A DNA stretch of 64,000 bases from a virus, in IMG/VR virus record IMGVR_UViG_3300006141_000001, one strand, 5' to 3'. Under the pieces are notes generated by a model. It did no database searches, was not told the DNA's origin, and worked only from the letters and a program-made list of their open reading frames with translations. A program made the translations under genes and the position numbers. Shown piece by piece: positions 18,789 through 50,268 of the stretch (positions within the stretch are counted from its first letter, which is position 1; the number at the start of each line of letters is the position of its first letter).

Positions 18789-20120
18789 TTATAATCAACT
18801 CCTCCGCTTCTTCCATATCTGGGGCATCTGCACTGTCTTTAATAATTCCTTCAAGGACTTTAAAGCTAAAATTTTTATGTTTATATGCCTTAAATGTTTC
18901 CCTATTGTCAATCCTCACTACAACACCTTCCCTTACATGTGTCTTTCCAATCGGGTCTTCCCCATCATAATATTTTTCTACACGTTCCATTAAATCTTCC
19001 CATGTAGTAAAGACAAACTTTTCAAATGTGGGAACGCATTTAACTCCTAATTTCTCACATTCAATTTGAACTTGTTCCCATGGAATTTCTACAGTAAACC
19101 CATCTTCTCCTGTCATAGTCATACGATACACATAAATATCGTTTTCTCCTGGCTTACATCCATATGAAAATACCGTTTCTTTCCCATACTTCTTCTCAAA
19201 TTCCTTATCTTTTACTTTTTTATTGGAACATCTTCCCATTATTGTTTGGTCGCCTTCTGTATACCCAACAATTTCATAGAATATTTCTACTCCCTTGGGA
19301 AGCTTGTCTTTGAAGAAATTCTGATATTTTTCCCTGAATTTATTACTCCCATAAAATCCACCATTATAATCTTTTAAAACTTTCCTTCTAGTTCCGCTAA
19401 CAATCTTAAACTTACGAATTTCTTTATCATTCAGTTTGAATACTTTTTTTAGGAAAAGATTTCTTTTTCTTTTTTTCACCTCAATAGCATTCGCCGTGCG
19501 ATTCGATGTTCCATGCATCTTCAGCGTTATATAGCAAGTATCTCCTGGCTTGAATGCATTTTTATTATATGCAAGTTGCTCTGTGTCGCTATGTTCTTTA
19601 AAGAATGGATACGAAATTATTTCCTTTTCATCTTTTCTCTTCTTTTTCTTGTTATCGTGTGTGGCATTACTTCTTCTATTTGTCTTTGGAATATACTTCC
19701 TGCAAATCTCATGTCCATTCAGGACAGAAACTTTATCACCGTCAGATAAGGTTTCAATATCCACATATTTTCCCAACCTTTCGATTGGCAATACCAATCC
19801 ATCTGATTTCTCACCCCTTAATTTTAAAGCAGTAATATTCCTTTTGTTGGGGTCAAGATAACCACCAACATTATTCCCATCTCATCTTTTAACCTGACAA
19901 GATTATTCTCAATGGCAAATTCTTCACTTAACTGCCCATCTACAGGGAAATAGACTACTCTTTGTCCTTCTTTATACGATAAATCTACGATTACGTTATT
20001 TCCAAAAACTGTTGCGCATAACAACCTATCTGCATTACTATGCTTTCTAAGTTCTTTAATTGTTGTTATGTATCCACAATACCCATTGATAATATTCTGT
20101 TCCATTTCGCTTACCATCAT
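18781..20120 (-). CDS. ATP-dependent RNA ligase (Rnl2 or nick-sealing type) with an N-terminal OB-like module. It is interrupted by a 1-nt frameshift near 19840.
   Basis: Downstream ORF: motif I LKMHGTS (KxHGT as in T4 Rnl2), IFYEIVGY, EGVVVRID and KAYKHKNFSFK (motifs IV and V). Upstream 98-aa ORF: ITTIKELRKHSNADRL..GQRVVYFPVDGQLS, resembling the N-domain of some RNA ligases. The frames join as ...KDEMG/NNVGGYLDPNKR... Confidence 0.6.
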
Positions 20121-22769: not shown

Positions 22770-23795
22770 TTAAACTCCTTTCACAATTCGCTCATTTACA
22801 TACATTTTGAACTCATTGATTTTCTTATAGTCTGGAAAATCTGGAAGAGATGTGTTGTTTTTTGCATATTCAAACTTCTTCTCATACCCATCCAGTAAAT
22901 CATAAAACGCAGATGTAGGCTGCCTATTCTCATCAAGAAATTCACCATTCCTAATTCTCATAAGTAAATCATGCTCGTCTGCTCTATATGTGATGATTTC
23001 TTCTTTTTCGAGAATGTCAATGCACATCATGTAAAGCCGGATCAAATGTGCTGAATGTTTCCCTAATTTATCATGTGATATCGCTTTTTCATTTCGCTTC
23101 CCAATTTTATTATAACTGCTTACAATGGCCTTCATCTCGTTACACATTCCTGCCCAGTCCCTCAACGGATAATGCCTTAACCTTGCATCAATGAAAATTT
23201 CACTATCGTACCCTTCATGTTCTGATTTATCAATATAAAGTTTCACCCTGCTGTTGCTTTGCGGGTAATACCTATTCTTAAAATCATACTTCGCATTTTT
23301 TATGCTTTTAAGGATATATGCTTCATTTTGTGCCTGCCCTACTAACCTGGCCGATTTATTGCCCAACCTACGGAGCTGGGACTGGGCATACCCGCCGAAT
23401 GTATGGATGCAGATTTTGGAAAGAAACATTCTTTTGTTACCTAGAAGTTCTTTCCCAATATCAGATAAATATAGATAATGTTCCGGAAGGGAACCCAAAC
23501 ATTCGATTACATTAGGGTTGCATTTTGTAAGTAGCTCAATCATTTTATTAAATGAATACATCACGGTATCTGTTTCTGTATCTACAACCTGCCCAAAATC
23601 AGTCCCCAATAGGATATCTTTCTTAGAATTTAACGCAATCCCTCTTACATCCAAATCAGACCCTTCCTTTTCCATCCCATAAGCATGGCTTCCTCCTACT
23701 GTTAAAAGAATAATATTGCTACCTAAATTTTTATCTTTCTTCAAAAAAGCATACTCATCTGATTTTATTTTTTCTTTTATTTGCCCAATGTTCAT
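22770..23795 (-). CDS. Pol-beta-superfamily nucleotidyltransferase
   Basis: TVGGSHAYGMEKEGSDLDVRG matches the G[GS]-x(9-13)-DxD NTase signature. Confidence 0.65.
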   Translation of the reverse strand: MNIGQIKEKIKSDEYAFLKKDKNLGSNIILLTVGGSHAYGMEKEGSDLDVRGIALNSKKDILLGTDFGQVVDTETDTVMYSFNKMIELLTKCNPNVIECLGSLPEHYLYLSDIGKELLGNKRMFLSKICIHTFGGYAQSQLRRLGNKSARLVGQAQNEAYILKSIKNAKYDFKNRYYPQSNSRVKLYIDKSEHEGYDSEIFIDARLRHYPLRDWAGMCNEMKAIVSSYNKIGKRNEKAISHDKLGKHSAHLIRLYMMCIDILEKEEIITYRADEHDLLMRIRNGEFLDENRQPTSAFYDLLDGYEKKFEYAKNNTSLPDFPDYKKINEFKMYVNERIVKGV

Positions 23796-26497: not shown

Positions 26498-26680
26498 TTA
26501 AAAATTATTGTTTTTAATCAAATACAAACCTGAATATCCTCCCAATCCTCCTCCTTGTGTAGTTAACGCACAGGCAATTCCATCAGAATCATACACACGA
26601 TATCCTTGTTTATAATTTCTGGACAAATCCTTCCCATTGTCCAACCACTTATTGCTTTCTATCCCGCCAACAAATATCAA
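26498..26680 (-). CDS. C5-methyltransferase TRD-end-like fragment (TTG start, overlapping the upstream stop). Possibly a remnant or a frameshifted extension.
   Basis: NYKQGYRVYDSDGIACALTTQGGGLGGYSGLYLI resembles the conserved end of C5-MTase target-recognition domains. Confidence 0.3.
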   Translation of the reverse strand: MIFVGGIESNKWLDNGKDLSRNYKQGYRVYDSDGIACALTTQGGGLGGYSGLYLIKNNNF

Positions 26681-28500
26681 TTCATTGGCAGTTTCTGAAA
26701 ATTTTCTACAACTAAACTATCTTTTGGAGCTGTGGTGATGGCATTTGACAATCCATCATTCCGTATTTCTATTTTTTGTTTTATTTCTTCATTTGAATTA
26801 TACCTTCCACGCATAGCAGCACCAACACCATCTAATATAGCTGATTTATGTTCACAACAAATAGACTCATCTACATGTTGTTGAATAAAACTTTCTTGGA
26901 GTTTTTCATCGGTACATATATATGTATCATCATATTGAGCCTTATATAAATGCTCCGCTAATAACGCACAGCAATTTGTGATTATTCCATTCCCTGCTTG
27001 TTTATATAGATGTGTATTCGCAATACCTATTTCTGCAGCTTTATCACAATCTTCGAAAGTCAATCCCATGAGTTTATAACATTCTTTCGGAGTTAATTTA
27101 CGGATTCTAATTGTTTTATATAATCCGTTAATCACGGCATTTGTTGGTTGATTTCCAAATCCTTTATGATCTCTAGCAAGTAATGTACATGCAAAATCTA
27201 TTTCTTTCTCAGATTTAGTCCCTTGATTTGAAACTAAGACCGTAATATCTGGAATTTCAAGAACAGCCGTTCCTTCTTTTTTCCTATTGCTTGATCCCCG
27301 ATTTTCACTTGCAGTTATACAATTTGCATTTTCAATTATCTTAGGGTTGTTGGTTGTTTTATCTATTCCACATATGATTTTAGCATTATTACCATGTCCT
27401 GCCGTATGTGTTGGTGATATTCCTTCTGGTGATACGACTATTCCGTCTTGCGAGGAATTAATCTCTCCAACTTTCAAAATATTATTTTCTGTTAAGTACC
27501 ATCCAGTTTTTGCACCGCCTCCACCGGCCTCGGATTTTAACGTCCTGCTAATATTATCTGAATACACCCTATTTGCATCCCCGTTATAATTATTGATATA
27601 CCCTACTTGATGGAGTTCATTATCAATCCTGAAAATTTTTTCTAAATCAATAGTTTTTAGAAATTTTTTTACTTTTTCGTCTGGTAAATAATATTTTTCA
27701 TCAACTTCTTTTTCTAAAATATCTTTTAGGCGTATACCAGTATCGAATGGTTTAGGAAATACATATTTACCTTTATCAATATCTTTCCTAATAGATATTA
27801 CAAAAACCCTTTCTCTTGATTGCGGGACTCCACAATTTTTCCCGTTGATTATCGAGTAATAAGAATTAAACCCCAACCCATCTAATATTCCTAACAAATC
27901 ATTAAAATTATTGATAAATTTTTTACTCACAAGATTTTTGACATTTTCAAACATTATGTATTTTGGAAGGGAATTACTATCTTTTGCTTTCTTGAGCAAT
28001 CTTATGTTTTCCCATAGCAGGCTACTTCTTGTACCACTATCAGGATTTAACCCTTTCATTTTTCCGCAAACGCTGATATCCGTGCAAGGAAAAGAACATG
28101 TCCATAAATCTGCATATGGCAATTCTTCAATTTTACTTATATCCCCTAAATTATGCGTCAGTTTACAAGCCAACCAATATTTCTCCAGATCCTTCTTCTT
28201 TCTCTTCACTAATTTAAGCCAATCGGACTTCTTGCCTTTCTCAGGATCATAGCCCAAATTTATATCCATTAAGTGCTGAGCCATCTCTTCCTTGGACGGA
28301 TACCCCTTATATGAAATAACCATTCCATCCGTCAAGCCACAATGGATAGCAGCATATGATAACACAGATTCTTTGCTTATTTCTGATGTATTTACTACTT
28401 CAATGTCAAATACTCCTGAGTCCCTAAATCCTCTTGTTTGACATCCTATTCCTGAAAATAATTCGTTTACTGTTAATTTTATTTTCTTATTTTCTTCCAA
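26677..28500 (-). CDS. DNA (cytosine-5)-methyltransferase with repeated TRD-like segments. Possibly multispecific.
   Basis: Motif I FSGIGC, IV SFPCTDIS, VI MFENVKNL and VIII QSRERVFVI. Several target-recognition-domain-end-like stretches (ANRVYSDNISRTLKSEAGGGG, GIVVSPEGISPTHTAGHG). Motif IX is RKLTPKECYKLMGL and motif X is LYKQAGNGIITN, followed by a roughly 100-aa extension. Confidence 0.85.
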   Translation of the reverse strand: MEENKKIKLTVNELFSGIGCQTRGFRDSGVFDIEVVNTSEISKESVLSYAAIHCGLTDGMVISYKGYPSKEEMAQHLMDINLGYDPEKGKKSDWLKLVKRKKKDLEKYWLACKLTHNLGDISKIEELPYADLWTCSFPCTDISVCGKMKGLNPDSGTRSSLLWENIRLLKKAKDSNSLPKYIMFENVKNLVSKKFINNFNDLLGILDGLGFNSYYSIINGKNCGVPQSRERVFVISIRKDIDKGKYVFPKPFDTGIRLKDILEKEVDEKYYLPDEKVKKFLKTIDLEKIFRIDNELHQVGYINNYNGDANRVYSDNISRTLKSEAGGGGAKTGWYLTENNILKVGEINSSQDGIVVSPEGISPTHTAGHGNNAKIICGIDKTTNNPKIIENANCITASENRGSSNRKKEGTAVLEIPDITVLVSNQGTKSEKEIDFACTLLARDHKGFGNQPTNAVINGLYKTIRIRKLTPKECYKLMGLTFEDCDKAAEIGIANTHLYKQAGNGIITNCCALLAEHLYKAQYDDTYICTDEKLQESFIQQHVDESICCEHKSAILDGVGAAMRGRYNSNEEIKQKIEIRNDGLSNAITTAPKDSLVVENFQKLPMN

Positions 28501-35743: not shown

Positions 35744-36976
35744 TTAATCAGCTTGCTTTATATCGTTCCTTGCCTTTCCGAATGAGTGATAAATAACGTC
35801 AAATTGCTGTTTTAAGTCCTTTACCTCGAAGCTATCAACCGATTCAAATATTCCAGGAACTTCATTGCTGTGTGTTATGGAAAGAGAAATTTTCCAGCCT
35901 TTCCCATTAGAAAAATCTTTTTGTATTCTGTTTAATAATTCAGAAACATTCATTTTCCCATAACGCATTGTCCCTTGATGTTGGTTCGGTACATTTGTCA
36001 AATCTTCCATATCTGGATTGATTTCTTCTTTTCCGCACTCATTATCAATCCTGCCCGCCCCGTGCCTTGTTAGATATGGTCTTGTGACATAACAGACTTC
36101 AACATTTGAATCTGGAAACAATCTTAAAATCATTTCCGCCGGATTCTTTAATCCGGTGTTGCTTGGTGTCAAATGAGGAAAATATTCTTTATTATTCTGG
36201 TCTAACAGAAGTCCTTGCCCTCCCTCGAAAATAATATTCTGGTATTTTTCGAGTGCGTTTGTATCTCCGCAAACCGTTACATGACTTGCCGTAAATTCCA
36301 AATCTGAAAGAAACTGTTCAATCAACCCATCAGCATTTATTATTTCTTCCCATTCTCTACTTGACCGCATTTTCAATTCGTTAAAGCGTTTTGGCAGATA
36401 TGTATGTTTTATGGCTTTGATTGCATCTTTGTTCCGCTTGCCGCAATTCTCCAATAAAACCCATGCCGGATAACCATAGTTTTCCTCATAACGTTTAATG
36501 GTTTCAAAAATCCCCATGCCACAGCTTCCATGTCGCCCATTAGAACGGTTTTCTTCCAAAATCTGATTGATTATCATATCAAATGGTGTTGTTACTCTGC
36601 ACGAAGGATTCAAATATACTGTTGGTTCATATCCTAATTTCTGCAATTCTTCCCATTCTTGTCTGAATAAAATGGGATTTACAATAAACTCCTTTGATAA
36701 ATAAGTATCTGCTCCTGCAAAAACCCCGGAACCAAAATGGTGGAACACATGGTGCGACCCCTCCGCCGTGTCTACCGTATGCCCTCTTTGTGCGCCACCG
36801 TTATGGCACACTACAATACAGTTTTCACCCCGTAGGGCGGCTTGGTGGCAAAAATAATCTGCCACCAAGCCTTTTCCTTCATCACCAAAGTTTGCACCGA
36901 TTACAACTTTGATGTTTTTCTTTACCACGAAATCATCCCTCCTGCATTTTCTTCTGTTCTTGTTTCTGTCGCCCAC
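35744..36976 (-). CDS. adenylosuccinate-synthetase-family enzyme (divergent PurA/PurZ-like)
   Basis: VVIGANFGDEGKGLVAD (GDEGKG P-loop), NGGAQRGHTV, FEGGQGLLLD and YVTRPYLTRHGAGR. These align with the PurA motifs GDEGKGK, GGHNAGHT, FEGAQGTLLD and STRVGAGPF. Confidence 0.65.
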   Translation of the reverse strand: MGDRNKNRRKCRRDDFVVKKNIKVVIGANFGDEGKGLVADYFCHQAALRGENCIVVCHNGGAQRGHTVDTAEGSHHVFHHFGSGVFAGADTYLSKEFIVNPILFRQEWEELQKLGYEPTVYLNPSCRVTTPFDMIINQILEENRSNGRHGSCGMGIFETIKRYEENYGYPAWVLLENCGKRNKDAIKAIKHTYLPKRFNELKMRSSREWEEIINADGLIEQFLSDLEFTASHVTVCGDTNALEKYQNIIFEGGQGLLLDQNNKEYFPHLTPSNTGLKNPAEMILRLFPDSNVEVCYVTRPYLTRHGAGRIDNECGKEEINPDMEDLTNVPNQHQGTMRYGKMNVSELLNRIQKDFSNGKGWKISLSITHSNEVPGIFESVDSFEVKDLKQQFDVIYHSFGKARNDIKQAD

Positions 36977-38395: not shown

Positions 38396-38466
38396 CTTAA
38401 AATTCCTCCTATAAAATAAATTTTTATTATTTGCGGACTTCCCACGAAAGAAAGTCCGCTGTGTGG

Positions 38467-40046: not shown

Positions 40047-40676
40047 TCACTCAGCACATAAATTGGCAAATTTGATTTTTCCAAAATAAGTTAATATCTT
40101 TTCTACTTTCAACCCAACTTCTACATCCCTTATATTGGTTATAATATCTGTGATATTTGTTTCTGAAAGACTCATGACTGTATCATAATTCCCAGAATAC
40201 TTTCCATCTTCAACAATCGGTTCGCTCAATCCATAATAAAAATAAACATCTTCTTTCTCAGCATCAATACTAATTTTACTTAATTCTTTTTTTGAAATTC
40301 CATTATATACAAGCCAAGCATCAAGGGCTTTATTTGCCAGAATATATTCCCCTTGCTTATAAAAATATGGTGACAAAAACTTGTTTTTTAATATTCTTCC
40401 TACGGATTCATCACCTATTTTCACTTTATCAGAGTATAATACAATGTTTTCTCTACCAGATGAGAATCCAATAATCACCTCGCTCCAATACCCTTTTGAC
40501 TCTATAATGGTTTTTATATCTTTTTTATTTGTTATATAACATTTTGAATTGGTAATATCCTTGCATTCAGAAAAAACCCTGGCAAAAATATCATCCTGTT
40601 CTTTATATGTCATATAAAAATCTTTCCCCAACTTATCTAAAATGTCTTTTTCTTTATAGCATCTGTATTGTGTCAT
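40047..40676 (-). CDS. hypothetical protein
   Basis: ORF track. Confidence 0.45.
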   Translation of the reverse strand: MTQYRCYKEKDILDKLGKDFYMTYKEQDDIFARVFSECKDITNSKCYITNKKDIKTIIESKGYWSEVIIGFSSGRENIVLYSDKVKIGDESVGRILKNKFLSPYFYKQGEYILANKALDAWLVYNGISKKELSKISIDAEKEDVYFYYGLSEPIVEDGKYSGNYDTVMSLSETNITDIITNIRDVEVGLKVEKILTYFGKIKFANLCAE

Positions 40677-41200
40677 GGCTTGTCAACTCCTTCCAATATT
40701 TCATTTAGAGTCTTTGGCATAAATCCAATTATATCCACTCCCACATTATAAGCATTCTTAATTTTTGATATATATTGATTAGTGCTATTCTCAAAATTGT
40801 TGTGGATATGTCCATAAAAATGCAATGTATTTCTATAATACCCATCCCACTCCACCATAGGATAATGACAGCATATAATCCGTTTTCCACTGTCATTGAC
40901 CGTTTTTATAAAAGTAACTGATGAGAAATACTTTTCATACTTCTTATTGCTTAATAATTTATTGTCATGGTTCCCTATAATCAAATGTTTCTTCCCTTTC
41001 AATTTTTTAAGGTATGAAATAGGGTCTTGACTTTTATATGCAAAATCTCCTAAGATATAAATATTATCACTGTCTGTTACTCTATTATTCCAATTTTCGA
41101 TAATTGCTTTATCCATTTCTTTTATTGATTCAAATGGTCTTTTTGATAATTTAAGGATATTTTCATGTCCAAAATGAGTATCTGCAATATAATAATTCAT
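40673..41200 (-). CDS. calcineurin-like metallophosphoesterase
   Basis: IADTHFGH, ILGDFAY, GNHDN and GHIH motifs. Confidence 0.75.
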   Translation of the reverse strand: MNYYIADTHFGHENILKLSKRPFESIKEMDKAIIENWNNRVTDSDNIYILGDFAYKSQDPISYLKKLKGKKHLIIGNHDNKLLSNKKYEKYFSSVTFIKTVNDSGKRIICCHYPMVEWDGYYRNTLHFYGHIHNNFENSTNQYISKIKNAYNVGVDIIGFMPKTLNEILEGVDKP

Positions 41201-41246
41201 ACAATCTCCAATCTAATATAAAATTACAATCGTCCTGTCTCTTTTA

Positions 41247-42032
41247 TTAAGAAACAAGACCAACTCCAATGCCAGGATTAAAACTTGGCATAAGCTGTAA
41301 TTTGAATAAGTTTTTCTTATGCATTGTATCAATTTTCTTTTTTACTTCTTGGTCTTCAATTTCACCTGTACGGATGTATCTATCCAACACCTCATAAGTA
41401 AAGCCAAAATTCTCTTCATCTGTCTTTCCGCAAAGCCCATCAGATGGTGTTTTATCAATTAATTTGTCTGGTAACCCCAACACTCTCCCAATCTGTTTAA
41501 TTTCTGTAACCGTAAGGTTAGAAAGCGGACTAAAATCTCCAACTGAATCCCCATACCTCGTACTATATCCTATCCAATCCTCTGACAAATTACATGTATT
41601 TGCCACCCTACCATCCATACTTTGGCTTACAGCATATAAAGTTGCCATACGGATACGAGCAGGAAGATTAATTTCTGCCTGTTCTGTCAAACTATCATTA
41701 TCATCAAAAGCATTGAGAATATCATACTTTAAAGTATTCAAAGTATGTCCAATCGGAACTAAAGCAAAATTAATTCCAAGATACCTGCATAATAAATAAC
41801 TACAGTCAATATCTGTCTGAAGTCCATTTGGCATAAGAACGCCAAACACTCTATCTTTACCAAGTGCCTCTGCACATAGGGCAGCTACTACAGAACTATC
41901 TTTTCCACCTGAAATTCCAATTACTGCTTTACAACCCTTGCCATTATCCTCAAAGCATCCTTTAATCCAATTTACGCATTTATTCTTTACTTCTACTGCG
42001 TTAAAATCATCTATCATTGTCCTAACCTCCAA
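41247..42032 (-). CDS. nadE: NH3-dependent NAD+ synthetase
   Basis: PP-loop VIGISGGKDSSVVAAL. Length and architecture match NadE. Confidence 0.75.
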   Translation of the reverse strand: MEVRTMIDDFNAVEVKNKCVNWIKGCFEDNGKGCKAVIGISGGKDSSVVAALCAEALGKDRVFGVLMPNGLQTDIDCSYLLCRYLGINFALVPIGHTLNTLKYDILNAFDDNDSLTEQAEINLPARIRMATLYAVSQSMDGRVANTCNLSEDWIGYSTRYGDSVGDFSPLSNLTVTEIKQIGRVLGLPDKLIDKTPSDGLCGKTDEENFGFTYEVLDRYIRTGEIEDQEVKKKIDTMHKKNLFKLQLMPSFNPGIGVGLVS

Positions 42033-42228
42033 TCATCAAACATATAGATTTGCTTCTGGCAATATTGAAATATCCATTTTTTTCCTGTAGGCTTACAAGT
42101 TACAATGTCTAATTCAATGCATATAAAAAATATTGGGATTCAATTGTAATCAAATAATATTTATTCCAAATACAATTCTTCTCATTCGATAATAAAGCAC
42201 AATTCTTTGTCCATTACATCACCTCAAT

Positions 42229-42855
42229 TCAAAATCCACTTTTGCGATAAACGTTATCTGTGTTTTCCAGATACTCAAAAACACATTCTGGGACATAATC
42301 CTTAACCGAGCCTAACTGGTTATTGACATACGCCTCCCTTATCTGTGTCGATGATACTTCTTGATATGCCCCTTCAATATATCTAAAATTACCATTATAT
42401 TGCATTAATGATTCATGTAATTTCCCATTGTCATTATTCCTAGTAATCACCAAAAACCTATTATCCCTAACTACCTCTTCTGCTTTATACCATCTGTGGA
42501 TTTCACAAAGTTTGTCTGCCCCAATGCATATAATAGGATCCATTTTTCTATAATACTGGATTGTATTATATGTTTTGCCATCTACTGTCCCATTTATCTC
42601 AATGTTCGATACATGAAAACCGAATTTTTTCACTGCCTCATGTAATAGCAGGAATCTCTTATCTCCATCCAATACCATCCCATCTCCGTACTTTTTCCAG
42701 TCTTTTAAAAATTTATCATTAGATGGAACAAAAACAATATTAGCTGATGGATATACCATCTTGCAACAAATGCCCATATTTATATGGGCATTTGTCACAG
42801 GATTAAAAGCACCAAAAATCAATACTGACTTATTCATACTGCAATCTCCAGTCAA
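42229..42855 (-). CDS. nadD: nicotinate/nicotinamide mononucleotide adenylyltransferase (NadD/NMNAT family)
   Basis: LIFGAFNPVTNAH ((H/T)xGH motif), ICIGADKL, VSSTQIREAY (ISSTxIR) and VPECVFEYL. Confidence 0.65.
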   Translation of the reverse strand: MTGDCSMNKSVLIFGAFNPVTNAHINMGICCKMVYPSANIVFVPSNDKFLKDWKKYGDGMVLDGDKRFLLLHEAVKKFGFHVSNIEINGTVDGKTYNTIQYYRKMDPIICIGADKLCEIHRWYKAEEVVRDNRFLVITRNNDNGKLHESLMQYNGNFRYIEGAYQEVSSTQIREAYVNNQLGSVKDYVPECVFEYLENTDNVYRKSGF

Positions 42856-44035
42856 TACATCTCTGCAAATAGTTTACATAATCGAGGTTCTTGCAAATTC
42901 CTTTCCCAACATCATCTGAAATCTTTGCCACATCTTGTCCATTACATTTTGTAACTTTCATGACAATATTCAACGGCTCCACATCCGTATCATTAGAAAT
43001 ATAAGTCCCTATCCCAAACGCAATCTTTGCCCTTTCTTTAAAATAATGATAGATTTTATCTGCTTTTTCAAAGTTTAAACTGTCACTAAAAAGCAATGTC
43101 TTACTCCTTGGGTCTATCCCTAGATCTTTATAATGGTTAATTATTTTTTCTCCCCATTCATACGGACTGCCACTATCATGTCTCACACCACTGAATAAAG
43201 TGGCATAAGTAAGGTTAAAATCTTTCAAAAAACAATCTGTCCCAATGGTATCTGTAAGAGCCGTCCCATTAAGGATCCCATATTCTCTTACCCAAGCTTC
43301 CATCGCATACCAATTCGAATAAGCAGGATTATGCTTATGGTTCCCTTGGCCTACACACATAATAAACTCATGCGCTTGGGTTCCTGTGGGCATTAAATTA
43401 TACTTCATTGCCAAATAAACGTTAGAAGTCCCAACAAAAACTGAGCAGCAATATTTGATTCCAGATAACTTTTGCACTGCCATTTCTTGAGCTTCGGCAG
43501 AAAGCCTGCGCCTAAGTCCAAATTCACTAAAAGAAGAGAGATAATACCTTCCTTGATATATTCCTAGCCATTCCGCTTTCTCCTCCAATTTTTCTGTAAA
43601 CACTTCCATCAAATGTCTATAATTATGTGCCATTTTAAAATACACTTCATTTACTATTGCTAAAACCGGGATCTCATACATACTTGTGTTAAGCCATGTA
43701 CCTTTAGTTTCAATCACCAGACCACATTTTGAATTAACTGTTATATCAAAATCCTCAAAACGTGGCTGCCATAAACGCAAAAAATCCACATAATTTCCCT
43801 TAATCCAACGAATATTTTTTAAATATTGAAGCTCCTGTTCAGTAAACTTAAGGCTACAATACAATTTAATTTGGCGCTTAATCTCTTGAACCATTTCAGG
43901 CGTAAAAAATATATCTTTATTACGGCATTTAAACGTCCAAGTAGTTTTATAGTCCGAAAATTGATGAAGAATGACTTGCCCCATACTAAATTTGTATAAA
44001 TCATTCTCCAATAAACTATTAATAATCCTATCCAT
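42830..44035 (-). CDS. pncB: nicotinate phosphoribosyltransferase
   Basis: LLENDLYKFSMGQ (compare E. coli PncB LLDTDAYKLHMQQ), GTQAHE, GVRHDSGSPYEWGEK and LNIVMKVTKCNGQDVAKISD. Confidence 0.8.
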   Translation of the reverse strand: MDRIINSLLENDLYKFSMGQVILHQFSDYKTTWTFKCRNKDIFFTPEMVQEIKRQIKLYCSLKFTEQELQYLKNIRWIKGNYVDFLRLWQPRFEDFDITVNSKCGLVIETKGTWLNTSMYEIPVLAIVNEVYFKMAHNYRHLMEVFTEKLEEKAEWLGIYQGRYYLSSFSEFGLRRRLSAEAQEMAVQKLSGIKYCCSVFVGTSNVYLAMKYNLMPTGTQAHEFIMCVGQGNHKHNPAYSNWYAMEAWVREYGILNGTALTDTIGTDCFLKDFNLTYATLFSGVRHDSGSPYEWGEKIINHYKDLGIDPRSKTLLFSDSLNFEKADKIYHYFKERAKIAFGIGTYISNDTDVEPLNIVMKVTKCNGQDVAKISDDVGKGICKNLDYVNYLQRCIDWRLQYE

Positions 44036-44038
44036 ATT

Positions 44039-44581
44039 TCATTCTCCAACTTTCTTTAATCTATTAAAGGCGTTGTTGTCTTCATTCATTATTTTTAACA
44101 TCCATGTATTGATAAAATTTTTGTCATTTACATGCATAGCCATAGGTTTACTCATCCTATTTTTCCACCACATATATTCTTTTTCATATGTAAAATCCTT
44201 ACCGTAATATGCCCTTCCTGCCCCAAGAAAATCGCATAACATTTCTTTTTTATACTTCAATGGCATCTCAATGGCTATTCCGCCATCATCAAAATTATCC
44301 TGCCAGTACTCATAGTGATGCTTATTCCTCCCCTTATGATGCATCCACGCCTTTGACCAGCCATTCTCTTTTTTACAAGCATCAATAGGGCTGGAATTTC
44401 CTTGATAATATTTCACACCCTCCCAAAATTCTACAGAAGAAAATTTTGACATATCATGGAATAGTCCTTGTAAAGGGATTCCCATCTTCCAACAATAGTA
44501 AAATACCCAATATTTATGGACGCAGACCTTCTTAAAATGCTTAAAAATATTCACAATTTTAATCATCCTAATTCTTCCCAC
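44039..44581 (-). CDS. HD-like metal-dependent hydrolase of unknown function, embedded in the NAD module
   Basis: Ordered H / HD / H..H / D pattern: CVHKYW, LFHDMSKF, WMHHKGRNKHHYEYW and DDGGIAIE. Confidence 0.4.
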   Translation of the reverse strand: MGRIRMIKIVNIFKHFKKVCVHKYWVFYYCWKMGIPLQGLFHDMSKFSSVEFWEGVKYYQGNSSPIDACKKENGWSKAWMHHKGRNKHHYEYWQDNFDDGGIAIEMPLKYKKEMLCDFLGAGRAYYGKDFTYEKEYMWWKNRMSKPMAMHVNDKNFINTWMLKIMNEDNNAFNRLKKVGE

Positions 44582-45117
44582 ACCGTTTTTTTATTTACAT
44601 GGATTTGACACATTTTCATAGTCAGCAATGCTGCTTTATGCGCATCCGGAGAAGTGCCTGCACAACAATCCACATCTACAGAAATTTCAATATCTGGGAA
44701 ATTTGCCTTCAACAGCAAAGCGTTTGATACAACACATATGTCCGTACATAATCCAACAATTTCAATTTCTAACCTCTCTTTTCTATCCAAGATCCTTCTT
44801 ATTTCATTTATAAGGCGGGTTGATCCAAACGTTCTTTTCTCAATAATTTTATAATCCTTTCCCACTAATACATCACGGACATCCTTATTCAAAACCCATC
44901 CGTTAGTCATTCTAATACAATGGGCAACTGGTAAATGCTTCCCTTCAAAAGTTTCTAAATAATTGTCATCATGTGTATCCAATGTTGCAAAAATCTTCCC
45001 ATCAAACCCTTTTATTTTATCTACTACATTTCCAACAATGTCTTTTGCTTCCTTTGTTCCGAGTGAGCCGTCAATAAAATCATTTTGCATATCAACCACA
45101 ACCAAAATACTACTCAT
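44563..45117 (-). CDS. pncA: isochorismatase-fold nicotinamidase (PncA-like)
   Basis: N-terminal LVVVDMQNDF signature and Cys in VGLCTDICV. Confidence 0.65.
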   Translation of the reverse strand: MSSILVVVDMQNDFIDGSLGTKEAKDIVGNVVDKIKGFDGKIFATLDTHDDNYLETFEGKHLPVAHCIRMTNGWVLNKDVRDVLVGKDYKIIEKRTFGSTRLINEIRRILDRKERLEIEIVGLCTDICVVSNALLLKANFPDIEISVDVDCCAGTSPDAHKAALLTMKMCQIHVNKKTVWEELG

Positions 45118-45200: not shown

Positions 45201-46220
45201 TTAATCTTCCTCATATGGGCATTCTGGCAATGCTCCGCTCAATATTGCATTTCCACAAGTGATGCGCCCCAAGTCCTCATACTCGCTTGCGATAAACACA
45301 AGCACATCAAATCCGGCTTTCTTCAAATCCTCTTCAATGTGTCGGTATGGATACATGGTTGTATAATCTCCGCTTGTTTCAATACCGTTTTTAAGGGCGG
45401 TATGTGTTTTGTGCATAGGTGTCAACTTGACAAGGAATTTTTCGGGATTGAATAAATCTCTCATCTTCTCTGCATTGACCTCATAATCAGCAACCGCAAA
45501 ATTCAATGTAATTTTTCTTCCCTTTGGCATTTCAAGGCTTCTTCCAATATTTGAAATTTCCTGCAATGTCAGAGAATTTCCGCTAAACATATCCTCTCTT
45601 TCGCTGTCAGAAGTGGAATTGATGGAGAATTGCAATCCGGCATCCCCCGAAAAATCTTTGTTCTTAATCTCCATCCACACTTCAAGATAATCAGCTAATT
45701 TTGTGTTGTTCTTCGGTAACATGGTGGAAACAACGGGATGAATAAGGCTGTCACCGATATATGGTTTTAATTCTTCTCTCATATTCTTTGTAAACTCCAA
45801 AACCGCCCAATTCCATGTAGGCTCTCCCATTCTCGCATAATGCACATTCAAGCGGTTTGTATGAGTGATTTCTGGGTGCAATGATAAGCCGGTTACAATC
45901 TGACTTTTCAAATCATCGTATGTAGCGTTTATGCCTTTTCCGACTTTCGGCACATCACAGAATTTGCAGTTCATGGAGCAACCGTACTGTGTGCTGATTG
46001 TGATTACCCACTTTTCGGAAAGCGGTAACATTTGCTGATGTTCTACATGGTCTATCTCCCTTGTCAAGCCCATGAAATCAGCCTTTAAGTTCGCTTCTTT
46101 CCCATAGTCTCCGATTGACAGACATTCAAGTTTTCCCTTGTCACCCTCAACAATCATAATGTTTCCAGTTGGTACTTTTATATTTCTTAAAATTTTTATT
46201 TCCAAATCCTCCAATCTCAT
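45201..46220 (-). CDS. radical SAM enzyme of the RlmN/Cfr-like family (RNA C-methylating type)
   Basis: ISTQYGCSMNCKFCDV (CxxxCxxC; compare RlmN SSQVGCALECKFCST), ARMGEP (MGMGEP) and C-terminal RITCGNAIL (compare DIDAACGQL). Confidence 0.6.
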   Translation of the reverse strand: MRLEDLEIKILRNIKVPTGNIMIVEGDKGKLECLSIGDYGKEANLKADFMGLTREIDHVEHQQMLPLSEKWVITISTQYGCSMNCKFCDVPKVGKGINATYDDLKSQIVTGLSLHPEITHTNRLNVHYARMGEPTWNWAVLEFTKNMREELKPYIGDSLIHPVVSTMLPKNNTKLADYLEVWMEIKNKDFSGDAGLQFSINSTSDSEREDMFSGNSLTLQEISNIGRSLEMPKGRKITLNFAVADYEVNAEKMRDLFNPEKFLVKLTPMHKTHTALKNGIETSGDYTTMYPYRHIEEDLKKAGFDVLVFIASEYEDLGRITCGNAILSGALPECPYEED

Positions 46221-46273
46221 ATTATTTGCGGACTTCCCATGATAGAAAGTCCGCTGTGTGTCTAAAATGCCAT

Positions 46274-49416: not shown

Positions 49417-50268
49417 TTATTCTTCCAAAGCTTTTATAAGCTGCTCAATATATTCCCTCCCTTCTCCCTTAAAGACAGGAATGTCTTTATCAATAATCCA
49501 AGAACTGATGTTTTGACCCAAATTACGCAACATACATCTCTCTGTCACACTAACCTTCTCTAACATAATTTCATTTTTAACTACACACGTGCCTCTTTTT
49601 TGGTATGTAGGAAAATCATTCCAATTTATTCCTTTTTGGATCATTAACATGTCCTGGATATCATTATTGGTTTTATTCTGTAATTCTTTATGGCTAAAAT
49701 TAGCACGTCCCACCATTTGGACGCTATTTCTGGACGCATCTAACTGCCTCCAATATATATAATTTGTAACTTCCTCTTTGGGAATATTGAATACTCTAGC
49801 ATCAAACATTGCCCCCTTATCCTTTGCTTCATAATATTTTTTTACTAAATACCTATATTCGTGTTCTTCGATATTTTTTGGTTCGAAATTATCAAACTCA
49901 AAAACGTTTTGTTCGAAAATGCGATTAAAAGCTAAAGTCGCCATACTTGCAATAATACTACACATTTTTTGAACTTCATAATCAAACCATGAAGAAGAAT
50001 TAAGCCTTTTATAATCTACCAATACTAAAGAAATCTCATCTGACTGAGTATACCCAAGAACACATCCCTGGACATTCTCGCAAAGATATCTTGTAGTTTT
50101 CTGTATTGTATCAATCAGGACATCATCAAACGGCCTTCTAAAATTTCTGGCAAACGTATGGAACGCCCTCCCATCAACCCTGCATATGACTGGACAACGC
50201 CTCATAAGTTTTGTTTTTGGAATCCGCTCATAAAAAGTTTTCATCCTATCGCCAAGATTATCTCTCAT
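49417..50268 (-). CDS. Thg1-like protein (tRNA 3'-5' nucleotidyltransferase, TLP)
   Basis: N-terminal GDRMKTFYER...VICRVDGRAFHTF matches the Thg1-family signature (KFEYV...RVDGxxFHxF). Length is Thg1-like. Confidence 0.65.
   Translation of the reverse strand: MRDNLGDRMKTFYERIPKTKLMRRCPVICRVDGRAFHTFARNFRRPFDDVLIDTIQKTTRYLCENVQGCVLGYTQSDEISLVLVDYKRLNSSSWFDYEVQKMCSIIASMATLAFNRIFEQNVFEFDNFEPKNIEEHEYRYLVKKYYEAKDKGAMFDARVFNIPKEEVTNYIYWRQLDASRNSVQMVGRANFSHKELQNKTNNDIQDMLMIQKGINWNDFPTYQKRGTCVVKNEIMLEKVSVTERCMLRNLGQNISSWIIDKDIPVFKGEGREYIEQLIKALEE

Follow-up and report, generated by a model that had tools for sequence, protein, structure and literature searches.

A phage radical-SAM protein of the RlmN and Cfr sister group with a single predicted class A cysteine

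RlmN is a dual-specificity C2-methyltransferase of A2503 in 23S rRNA and A37 in tRNA, and Cfr is the C8-methyltransferase of A2503 in 23S rRNA. The class A radical S-adenosylmethionine (SAM) methylases are currently defined by these two enzymes together with a two-cysteine mechanism. Here we analyse a relative that is encoded in a 64,000-nucleotide stretch of the virus record IMGVR_UViG_3300006141_000001 (the whole of this stretch is referred to as the window), and that the initial annotation, made from the letters alone, had described as an N-terminally shortened, RlmN/Cfr-like RNA methyltransferase next to a nicotinamide adenine dinucleotide (NAD) module. Class A methylases are defined by 'two conserved cysteine residues', the second of which (C118 in RlmN, C105 in Cfr) is indispensable for turnover and resolves the protein–RNA crosslink; the C118A variant of RlmN remains covalently crosslinked to tRNA (PMC9692996). 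The phage protein has the counterpart of the other, methyl-carrying cysteine, and threonine at the place of the resolving one. We propose, with a rough probability of 0.45, that it is a stand-alone radical-SAM enzyme that performs a variant of class A radical methylation with one cysteine, on a substrate that is probably not rRNA.

Family membership and catalytic residues

By its sequence the protein falls within the phage branch of a large family, as yet without a name, which forms the sister group of RlmN and Cfr. It matches phrog_24834, a phage family of unknown function, over its full length (E = 3.1e-135, 451.5 bits; residues 9–338 against positions 2–333 of the 336-position profile). More than 7,300 proteins belong to the family at E ≤ 1e-3 in a collection of 5.8 billion proteins, in 625 clusters at 50% identity, and at least 492 viral stretches in IMG/VR encode a relative. 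Among isolated phages, Bacteroides phage Versailles comes closest (58% identity), and no near-identical phage genome was found among GenBank phages. Source records name family members 'radical SAM protein' or, through automatic KO (KEGG orthology) assignment, rlmN or '23S rRNA (adenine2503-C2)-methyltransferase'. No characterised member was found in literature on RlmN-like proteins, on phage radical-SAM proteins or on isochorismatase, thioredoxin reductase and radical-SAM combinations. The family is already catalogued yet uncharacterised, and this member of it can be described as a variant class A radical-SAM enzyme with one cysteine.

We compared the protein with curated equivalog models (NCBIfam TIGR00048, TIGR04432 and NF000424). 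It scores 33.0 bits on the RlmN model TIGR00048, below the curated cut-off of 290, and 24.5 and 26.5 bits on Cfr models with cut-offs of 550 and 530 (the cut-offs for Cfr models span 468–550); these RlmN and Cfr matches cover only the N-terminal half. As a single sequence it also falls below the gathering score of Pfam Radical_SAM (21.8 against 29.5 bits). Among solved structures, RlmN and Cfr are nonetheless the nearest. The top phmmer match in the PDB is an RlmN (E = 6.5e-5), and a profile of 37 diverse family members (alignment A1) matches RlmN (E = 4.9e-23) and Cfr (E = 5.3e-21) over the full length, whereas all other solved radical-SAM enzymes have E > 0.03. Fold comparison likewise places the RlmN/Cfr class nearest, with about 18% identity to RlmN (6fz6) over 267 aligned residues. 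The initial label of RlmN/Cfr-like therefore holds for the nearest characterised relatives, by profile and by fold; as a family assignment with an implied substrate it does not, given Thr74 (below) and scores of 24–33 bits against cut-offs of 290–550.

Alignments to RlmN begin near RlmN residues 90–106, so that the N-terminal shortening noted at the outset corresponds to a missing N-terminal helical domain; the model of the phage protein has just three β-strands and a loop ahead of β1. The protein is acidic, with an isoelectric point (pI) of 5.3 compared with 8.1 for the RlmN core, and its C-terminal tail is likewise acidic. Its open reading frame (ORF) is uninterrupted and embedded in a long run of minus-strand genes. 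In close homologues the first aligned query residue is residue 8, and the true start may therefore lie a few codons 3′ of the annotated ATG.

The RlmN-like motifs that had drawn attention to this ORF (the cluster motif, MGEP and RITCGNAIL) are all present, and their parallels to Escherichia coli RlmN are genuine. The cluster-motif stretch ISTQYGCSMNCKFCDV occurs in the translation, with C81, C85 and C88, and E. coli RlmN, taken from NC_000913, reads CVSSQVGCALECKFCST, followed by GMGEP and AACGQL. Residues S76–D89 align without gaps to RlmN S120–S133, which pairs C81, C85 and C88 with RlmN C125, C129 and C132. Each of these cysteines, together with D89, is invariant in all 102 sequences of a second alignment (A3), and G132, E133 and P134 are invariant in the family alignments. 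The residues that line the 5′-deoxyadenosine pocket of Cfr (F118, C119, M155, C338 and G339) have counterparts in F87, C88, M131, C322 and G323 of the phage protein. C322 and G323 are aligned to the AACGQ of RlmN (C355-G356) by MAFFT, and to the CGQ of both RlmN and Cfr by hidden Markov model (HMM), and they are invariant in A1 (37/37) and in A3 (102/102). The equivalent of Cys355, which the initial annotation had named as one residue to look for, is thus in place.

The other residue that it named, the equivalent of Cys118, is not. That position is Thr in all 119 phage-clade proteins (Thr74 in the window protein) and I, V, L or M in 119 of the 120 proteins of the prokaryotic clade; cysteine occurs there in none of the 337 family members in which the motif could be recognised. 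The initial annotation had itself named the absence of a second catalytic cysteine as a ground for refutation, and by that standard the protein does not strictly count as an enzyme of the RlmN/Cfr type. Nor, judged by sequence, is it an orthologue of either enzyme, because its scores are far below the cut-offs, no family member has a cysteine at the C118 position and the N-terminal domain is missing.

An alignment survey revealed no other cysteine that is conserved across the whole family. Cys33, which stands beside Glu32, and Cys334 are conserved in the closest subclade only: Cys33 is present in 31 of 31 proteins at ≥75% identity and is replaced by V, T or W in more distant phage members. Glu32 itself is probably the glutamate of the 'VETV' strand of RlmN and Cfr (E105 in RlmN). 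The HMM alignment to Cfr sets the family's 'vEfv' over 'rvEtv' of Cfr; alignment A3 puts Glu32 elsewhere. The phage clade also carries an insertion that is gapped in the prokaryotic clade, in which G37, D38, Y39, G40, K41, N44, K46, A47 and F49 are invariant; the AlphaFold2 model has pLDDT values below 50 at residues 40–61.

One homologue at 84% identity (P0040, 376 amino acids) has an extra, cysteine-rich C-terminal stretch, CDTCKYAYPECP...ICECKACE, that the window protein does not have; fusion to a zinc ribbon, or read-through into the following ORF, might account for it.

Cellular and phage gene neighbourhoods

We scanned the prokaryotic subfamily against one genome per species and clustered the neighbouring ORFs of all 80 loci obtained. 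These loci are bacterial and archaeal and belong to many lineages of uncultured anaerobes, among them Anaerolineales, Thermoplasmata, Zixibacteria and Planctomycetota. A thioredoxin-reductase-like (TrxR-like) flavoprotein of about 300 amino acids (T) adjoins the radical-SAM gene (R) in 67 of these cellular loci, and an isochorismatase-like hydrolase of about 223 amino acids (I) lies near it in 48; the order is usually I-T-R, and every other neighbour recurs in at most 8 loci. The hydrolase belongs to the isochorismatase superfamily of cysteine hydrolases, with cysteine hydrolases and isochorismatases as its best matches. The flavoprotein is likely to be a dedicated electron donor because no CxxC motif was seen in the one representative that was read by eye. 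This three-gene operon, which is strictly conserved and apparently undescribed, is found in metagenome-assembled bacterial and archaeal genomes of many uncultured anaerobes (loci L023–L102; for example, L019 488–3010) and also in Thermotoga spp., with Thermotoga sp. SG1/KOL6 as a cultured carrier.

Gene fusions combine the same partners. The radical-SAM domain is fused to the isochorismatase in P0207 and P0233 and to the TrxR-like protein in P0232 and P0265, and in P0150, P0152 and P0163 it is joined to an ECF-S/QueT-like membrane domain, in some cases together with a methylthioadenosine/S-adenosylhomocysteine (MTA/SAH) nucleosidase. The clade of these last three is the nearest to the phage proteins (34–37% identity, with the TCGN motif in common). 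On an HMM of the cellular operon clade, built from 74 radical-SAM-cluster ORFs that come from 73 of these 80 loci, the phage protein reaches 188 bits (E = 2.7e-57), and D89, R130, K186, Q197, T203, K236, K265, T267, T272 and E315 are invariant in both and differ from RlmN. Because of this score and these common residues, the sequences point to related chemistry across phage and cellular members.

The phage origin of the window, also part of the initial annotation, is backed by PHROG matches throughout its length and by relatives on IMG/VR contigs. Clustering of neighbouring ORFs over 80 viral loci gave no conserved neighbour, and neither the I nor the T partner of the operon was found in them. 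The commonest neighbour family occurs in 24 of the 80, all from one Versailles-like sublineage; in Versailles and some 20 contigs related to it the gene is part of a replication/recombination module, and the gene after it encodes a 134-amino-acid protein that looks, on inspection by eye and not by a scan of family libraries, like DUF4406 or nucleoside 2-deoxyribosyltransferase-like proteins. Homologues with 84–88% identity have no NAD genes nearby, and one on a 394-kb contig is flanked by a peptidase/unknown pair and a metallophosphoesterase, with a gene for a Tpt1-type RNA 2′-phosphotransferase two genes away. The phage radical-SAM gene stands alone, without fixed partners. PADLOC returned no match for the protein, its relatives or its neighbours, and we rejected the idea that it is a component of a known anti-phage defence system.

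In the window, the reported adjacency to NAD genes is real: genes for a PncA-type nicotinamidase (of the isochorismatase superfamily and first in order), a DUF5662 protein, NAPRTase, an NMNAT-type enzyme and NAD synthase lie directly downstream. The hydrolase is of the ordinary nicotinamidase type. Its best solved relative is Pyrococcus horikoshii PncA (1ilw), it scores merely 25.7 bits on an HMM of the operon-type hydrolase, and it therefore goes with NAPRT, NMNAT and NadE and not with the radical-SAM gene as the usual family partner. No TrxR-like ORF is present within the 64-kb window, and no NAD or isochorismatase gene lies near the gene in the 80 other phage loci. The proposed functional tie, whether with the NAD genes or with the repair of tRNA, is not conserved in those loci, and we rejected coupling through the isochorismatase gene as a conserved feature. 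We infer, with less confidence, that the adjacency is an accident of this phage's cassette organisation.

A repeated hairpin is the sole local hint of co-expression of the radical-SAM gene with the NAD genes. It lies in a conserved element of about 43 nucleotides, folds as RNA at −18.2 kcal/mol (z = −4.7) and occurs twice in 64 kb, where none is expected, with conserved flanks; the copies bracket 7.8 kb of DNA in which the radical-SAM gene and the NAD module both lie. The element is present on five other IMG/VR contigs, one of which shares DNA with the window and has the element beside sequence that is not found there. It may be a phage promoter, a terminator or a cassette boundary.

The window also encodes a set of RNA-repair-type proteins: an RNA ligase (PF09414, phrog_968), an RlaP 'RNA repair pathway' nucleotidyltransferase (PF10127) and a Thg1-like tRNA-His guanylyltransferase (PF04446, phrog_4717). 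A 410-amino-acid protein of the adenylosuccinate synthetase family (Pfam Adenylsucc_synt, 116.6 bits; phrog_1211, E = 1.8e-66) falls in the PHROG that contains PurZ-type enzymes, and the phage might produce 2-aminoadenine (Z-base) DNA or raise purine synthesis. The same one-strand array holds, in addition, a 607-amino-acid DNA methyltransferase (phrog_116) and a PAPS-reductase-like protein (phrog_424). Coordinates are collected in Table 1.

Table 1. Positions of the radical-SAM gene, its predicted functional sites and other features of the window
Feature	Position	Strand	Remarks
Radical-SAM enzyme gene, phrog_24834 member	45201..46220	−	Complete ORF, 339 amino acids plus stop
CX3CX2C motif, S76–D89, STQYGCSMNCKFCD	45954..45995	−	C81, C85 and C88 predicted to bind the [4Fe-4S] cluster; then family-specific Asp89
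SAM-binding motif RMGEP, R130–P134 (GMGEP in RlmN)	45819..45833	−	Invariant or near-invariant; Met predicted in the 5′-deoxyadenosine pocket
ITCGN, I320–N324 (within RITCGNAIL)	45249..45263	−	Cys322-Gly323, putative equivalent of methyl-carrier Cys355-Gly356 of RlmN and of C338 of Cfr
Thr74, position of the resolving cysteine (RlmN C118, Cfr C105)	45999..46001	−	7 residues before the first cluster Cys, ungapped block
Glu32, on the strand before β1	46125..46127	−	Invariant in A1 (37/37) and in A4, an alignment of 10 sequences (10/10)
Phage-clade insertion, residues 37–62 (GDYGK..N.KA.F)	46035..46112	−	Missing from the prokaryotic operon clade
12-bp hairpin in conserved ~43-nucleotide element CACACAGCGGACTTTCTNTCNTGGGAAGTCCGCAAATAATA	46228–46254	−	8 nucleotides upstream of the radical-SAM ATG
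Second hairpin copy	38433–38459	−	Just upstream of a gene start
Complete Preiss–Handler-type NAD route	40673–45117	−	PncA-like nicotinamidase, DUF5662, NAPRTase, NMNAT-type cytidylyltransferase, NAD synthase; then metallophosphoesterase
RNA-repair-type genes	18781–19797, 22770–23795, 49417–50268	−	Spread across 30 kb
Adenylosuccinate-synthetase-family gene	35744–36976	−	
DNA methyltransferase and PAPS-reductase-like genes	26677–28500 and 9115–10161	−	One-strand array

Proposed chemistry and rival explanations

The sequence shows that the cluster site, the SAM/5′-deoxyadenosine pocket and the C-terminal Cys-Gly have been retained on an RlmN-type fold, and that the N-terminal helical RNA-recognition domain and the resolving cysteine have been lost, or were never acquired. 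If RlmN-type chemistry is kept as well, a first SAM would methylate Cys322, and cleavage of a second SAM would yield a 5′-deoxyadenosyl radical that takes a hydrogen from the S-methyl group of Cys322. The thiomethylene radical so formed would then add to a heteroaromatic substrate at an electron-poor sp2 carbon. To release the product, the enzyme would have to use a non-cysteine base or another electron or proton route, for which the family-specific invariant polar residues Asp89 and Glu315 are candidates. In the phage setting, the electrons might come from a flavodoxin or ferredoxin of the host, a step we propose with less confidence.

Pairing with hydrolases or transporter-like domains, as in the cellular relatives, suits an enzyme that acts on small molecules or nucleotides better than one that acts on the ribosome. 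These partners, the missing RNA-recognition domain, the acidic protein and the scarcity of RNA-related linkage in the phage clade lead us to favour, with less confidence, a nucleotide or a small heteroaromatic metabolite over A2503 of 23S rRNA or A37 of tRNA.

Several observations weigh against this interpretation. The proposed chemistry is a reading of conserved residues. Within the closest subclade, Cys33 might replace the resolving cysteine. The fusion- and operon-bearing clades are only 26–37% identical to the phage protein, and partners such as the MTA/SAH nucleosidase and the TrxR-like protein could serve any radical-SAM enzyme by removing by-products or supplying electrons. Finally, the RNA ligase, RlaP and Thg1-like genes of the window, and a Tpt1-type RNA 2′-phosphotransferase two genes away from an 84%-identical homologue, make an RNA substrate possible.

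The same genes are part of what speaks for a minimal RlmN/Cfr enzyme, an RNA adenine C-methyltransferase that installs 2-methyladenosine (m2A) or 8-methyladenosine (m8A) on tRNA or rRNA during infection, with a non-cysteine base resolving the crosslink; it might, for example, re-modify repaired tRNA or shield tRNA from anticodon nucleases. Both sequence and fold place RlmN and Cfr nearest, every characterised relative acts on RNA, the methyl-carrier cysteine and a glutamate matching the VETV strand are conserved, and more distant phage homologues are located among tRNA genes. This explanation is a serious rival, although we consider it unlikely. The residue that is missing in 337 of 337 family members is the indispensable one, whose loss leaves RlmN crosslinked to tRNA, and the acidic protein and tail come without the N-terminal helical domain. 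The cellular partners are not RNA genes, and the homologue of a Stenotrophomonas phage that is embedded among tRNA genes belongs to another clade, which has the C118-position cysteine. A tRNA gene lies within 8 kb in just 6 of 46 phage-clade loci and adjacent in none, and we rejected tRNA-gene linkage of the phage clade on these counts. More improbable still is that the RlmN scaffold has been turned to a different radical chemistry (a lyase, an isomerase or a C–S or C–C bond-forming enzyme) with Cys322 as a hydrogen-atom donor or thiyl radical. Single catalytic cysteines are used in this way in other radical-SAM enzymes, such as spore photoproduct lyase; one class A cysteine has gone, and family-specific polar residues (D89, R130, K186, Q197, K236, K265 and E315) occupy active-site positions. 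However, the Cys-Gly and the pocket that places it beside 5′-deoxyadenosine are kept exactly as in RlmN and Cfr, and the MTA/SAH nucleosidase fusion suits an enzyme that makes both SAH and 5′-deoxyadenosine, although it is compatible with 5′-deoxyadenosine alone.

A role in DNA modification, by C-methylation of adenine in phage or host DNA or in a deoxynucleotide precursor for genome protection, would accord with the replication/recombination module of Versailles and its roughly 20 related contigs, with the DUF4406-like gene that follows there, and with the DNA methyltransferase and PurZ/PurA-like genes of the window. We regard it as decidedly improbable, as no DNA-modification partner is conserved in the 80 phage loci, no DNA enzymes are found near the prokaryotic operon clade and, to our knowledge, such a modification is without precedent. 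There is slightly less to be said for the protein as a working part of NAD salvage, in which it and the isochorismatase-family hydrolase beside it might, for example, jointly modify a pyridine or adenine nucleotide. The gene is directly upstream of the PncA-NAPRT-NMNAT-NadE genes and lies with them between the two hairpin copies, and cellular relatives have radical-SAM–isochorismatase fusions and operons; this view is opposed by the PncA-like character of the hydrolase and its 25.7 bits on the operon-hydrolase HMM, by the lack of a TrxR-like gene in the window, and by the absence of NAD and isochorismatase genes from all 80 other phage loci and from the surroundings of the 84–88% identical homologues. 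The chance of a queuine-lyase-type (QueL) enzyme of queuosine salvage is minute: the QueK-QrtT-QueL operon of Clostridioides difficile has a parallel in the fused domains of P0152 and P0163, but the protein does not resemble solved QueL (6p78) in sequence or fold, and we rejected QueL as a homologue.

We return to the one-cysteine class A enzyme, of which a more specific version can be put forward with considerable doubt. The family might be an unrecognised branch that C-methylates or covalently tags a non-rRNA target (for example, an adenine or pyridine nucleotide, a cofactor or DNA), with a flavoprotein reductase and a cysteine hydrolase as its cellular partners, the catalytic subunit having been captured by gut phages as a stand-alone gene for host takeover or counter-defence. 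In a more extreme variant, by analogy with RlmN C118A, an enzyme without the resolving cysteine would stay crosslinked to its nucleic-acid target.

The sister family has thousands of members, is very common in gut-type phages and is widespread in uncultured anaerobic bacteria and archaea, and the pipeline label '23S rRNA (adenine2503-C2)-methyltransferase' is not justified for its members. If they are active methylases, they would show that the class A reaction can be completed in a second way, probably with a new class of substrate; should they act on a nucleotide or a nucleic acid, the product would be a new phage-encoded modification. The interest of such a variant, both to radical-SAM enzymology and to work on the auxiliary functions of phages, is moderate to good.

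Comparison with known systems

With RlmN the phage protein has in common the S-x-Q-x-G-C-x3-C-x-F-C cluster motif, MGEP, the extra N-terminal β-strands, the C-terminal Cys-Gly (C355 of RlmN, C322 here) and, probably, the glutamate E105 (E32 here). It differs from RlmN in the missing N-terminal helical domain, in Thr74 in place of Cys118, in its acidity, in its gene contexts and in family-specific residues at many active-site positions. Compared with Cfr, the equivalent of C105 is absent and there is no sign of a role in antibiotic resistance. QueL and the phage protein are alike in being radical-SAM enzymes, and the domains to which some relatives are fused are reminiscent of the QueK/QrtT/QueL operon. 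The cellular sister clade has the two partner genes that the phage clade does not, lacks the 26-residue insertion at residues 37–62, and has CGQ where the phage clade has CGN and a hydrophobic residue where the phage clade has threonine at position 74.

A copy in the crAss-like Kehishuvirus 'tikkala' (L002 5836–6758), outside this family, is also without the C118-position cysteine and is split into two ORFs, with the CGQ-containing C-terminal piece separate.

The short RlmN-like protein of Stenotrophomonas phage ANB28 (XMQ95057.1, annotated as 'ribosomal RNA large subunit methyltransferase N'; L003 4881–5840) resembles the window protein in being phage-encoded and in lacking the long N-terminal domain, and the two are 24% identical over 74% of the window protein. 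Unlike the latter, it has a cysteine at the C118 position (VICCSTQSGC), sits amid tRNA genes and falls in a different clade. Short phage proteins of the ANB28 type are better candidates for true RNA methylases than the protein described here.

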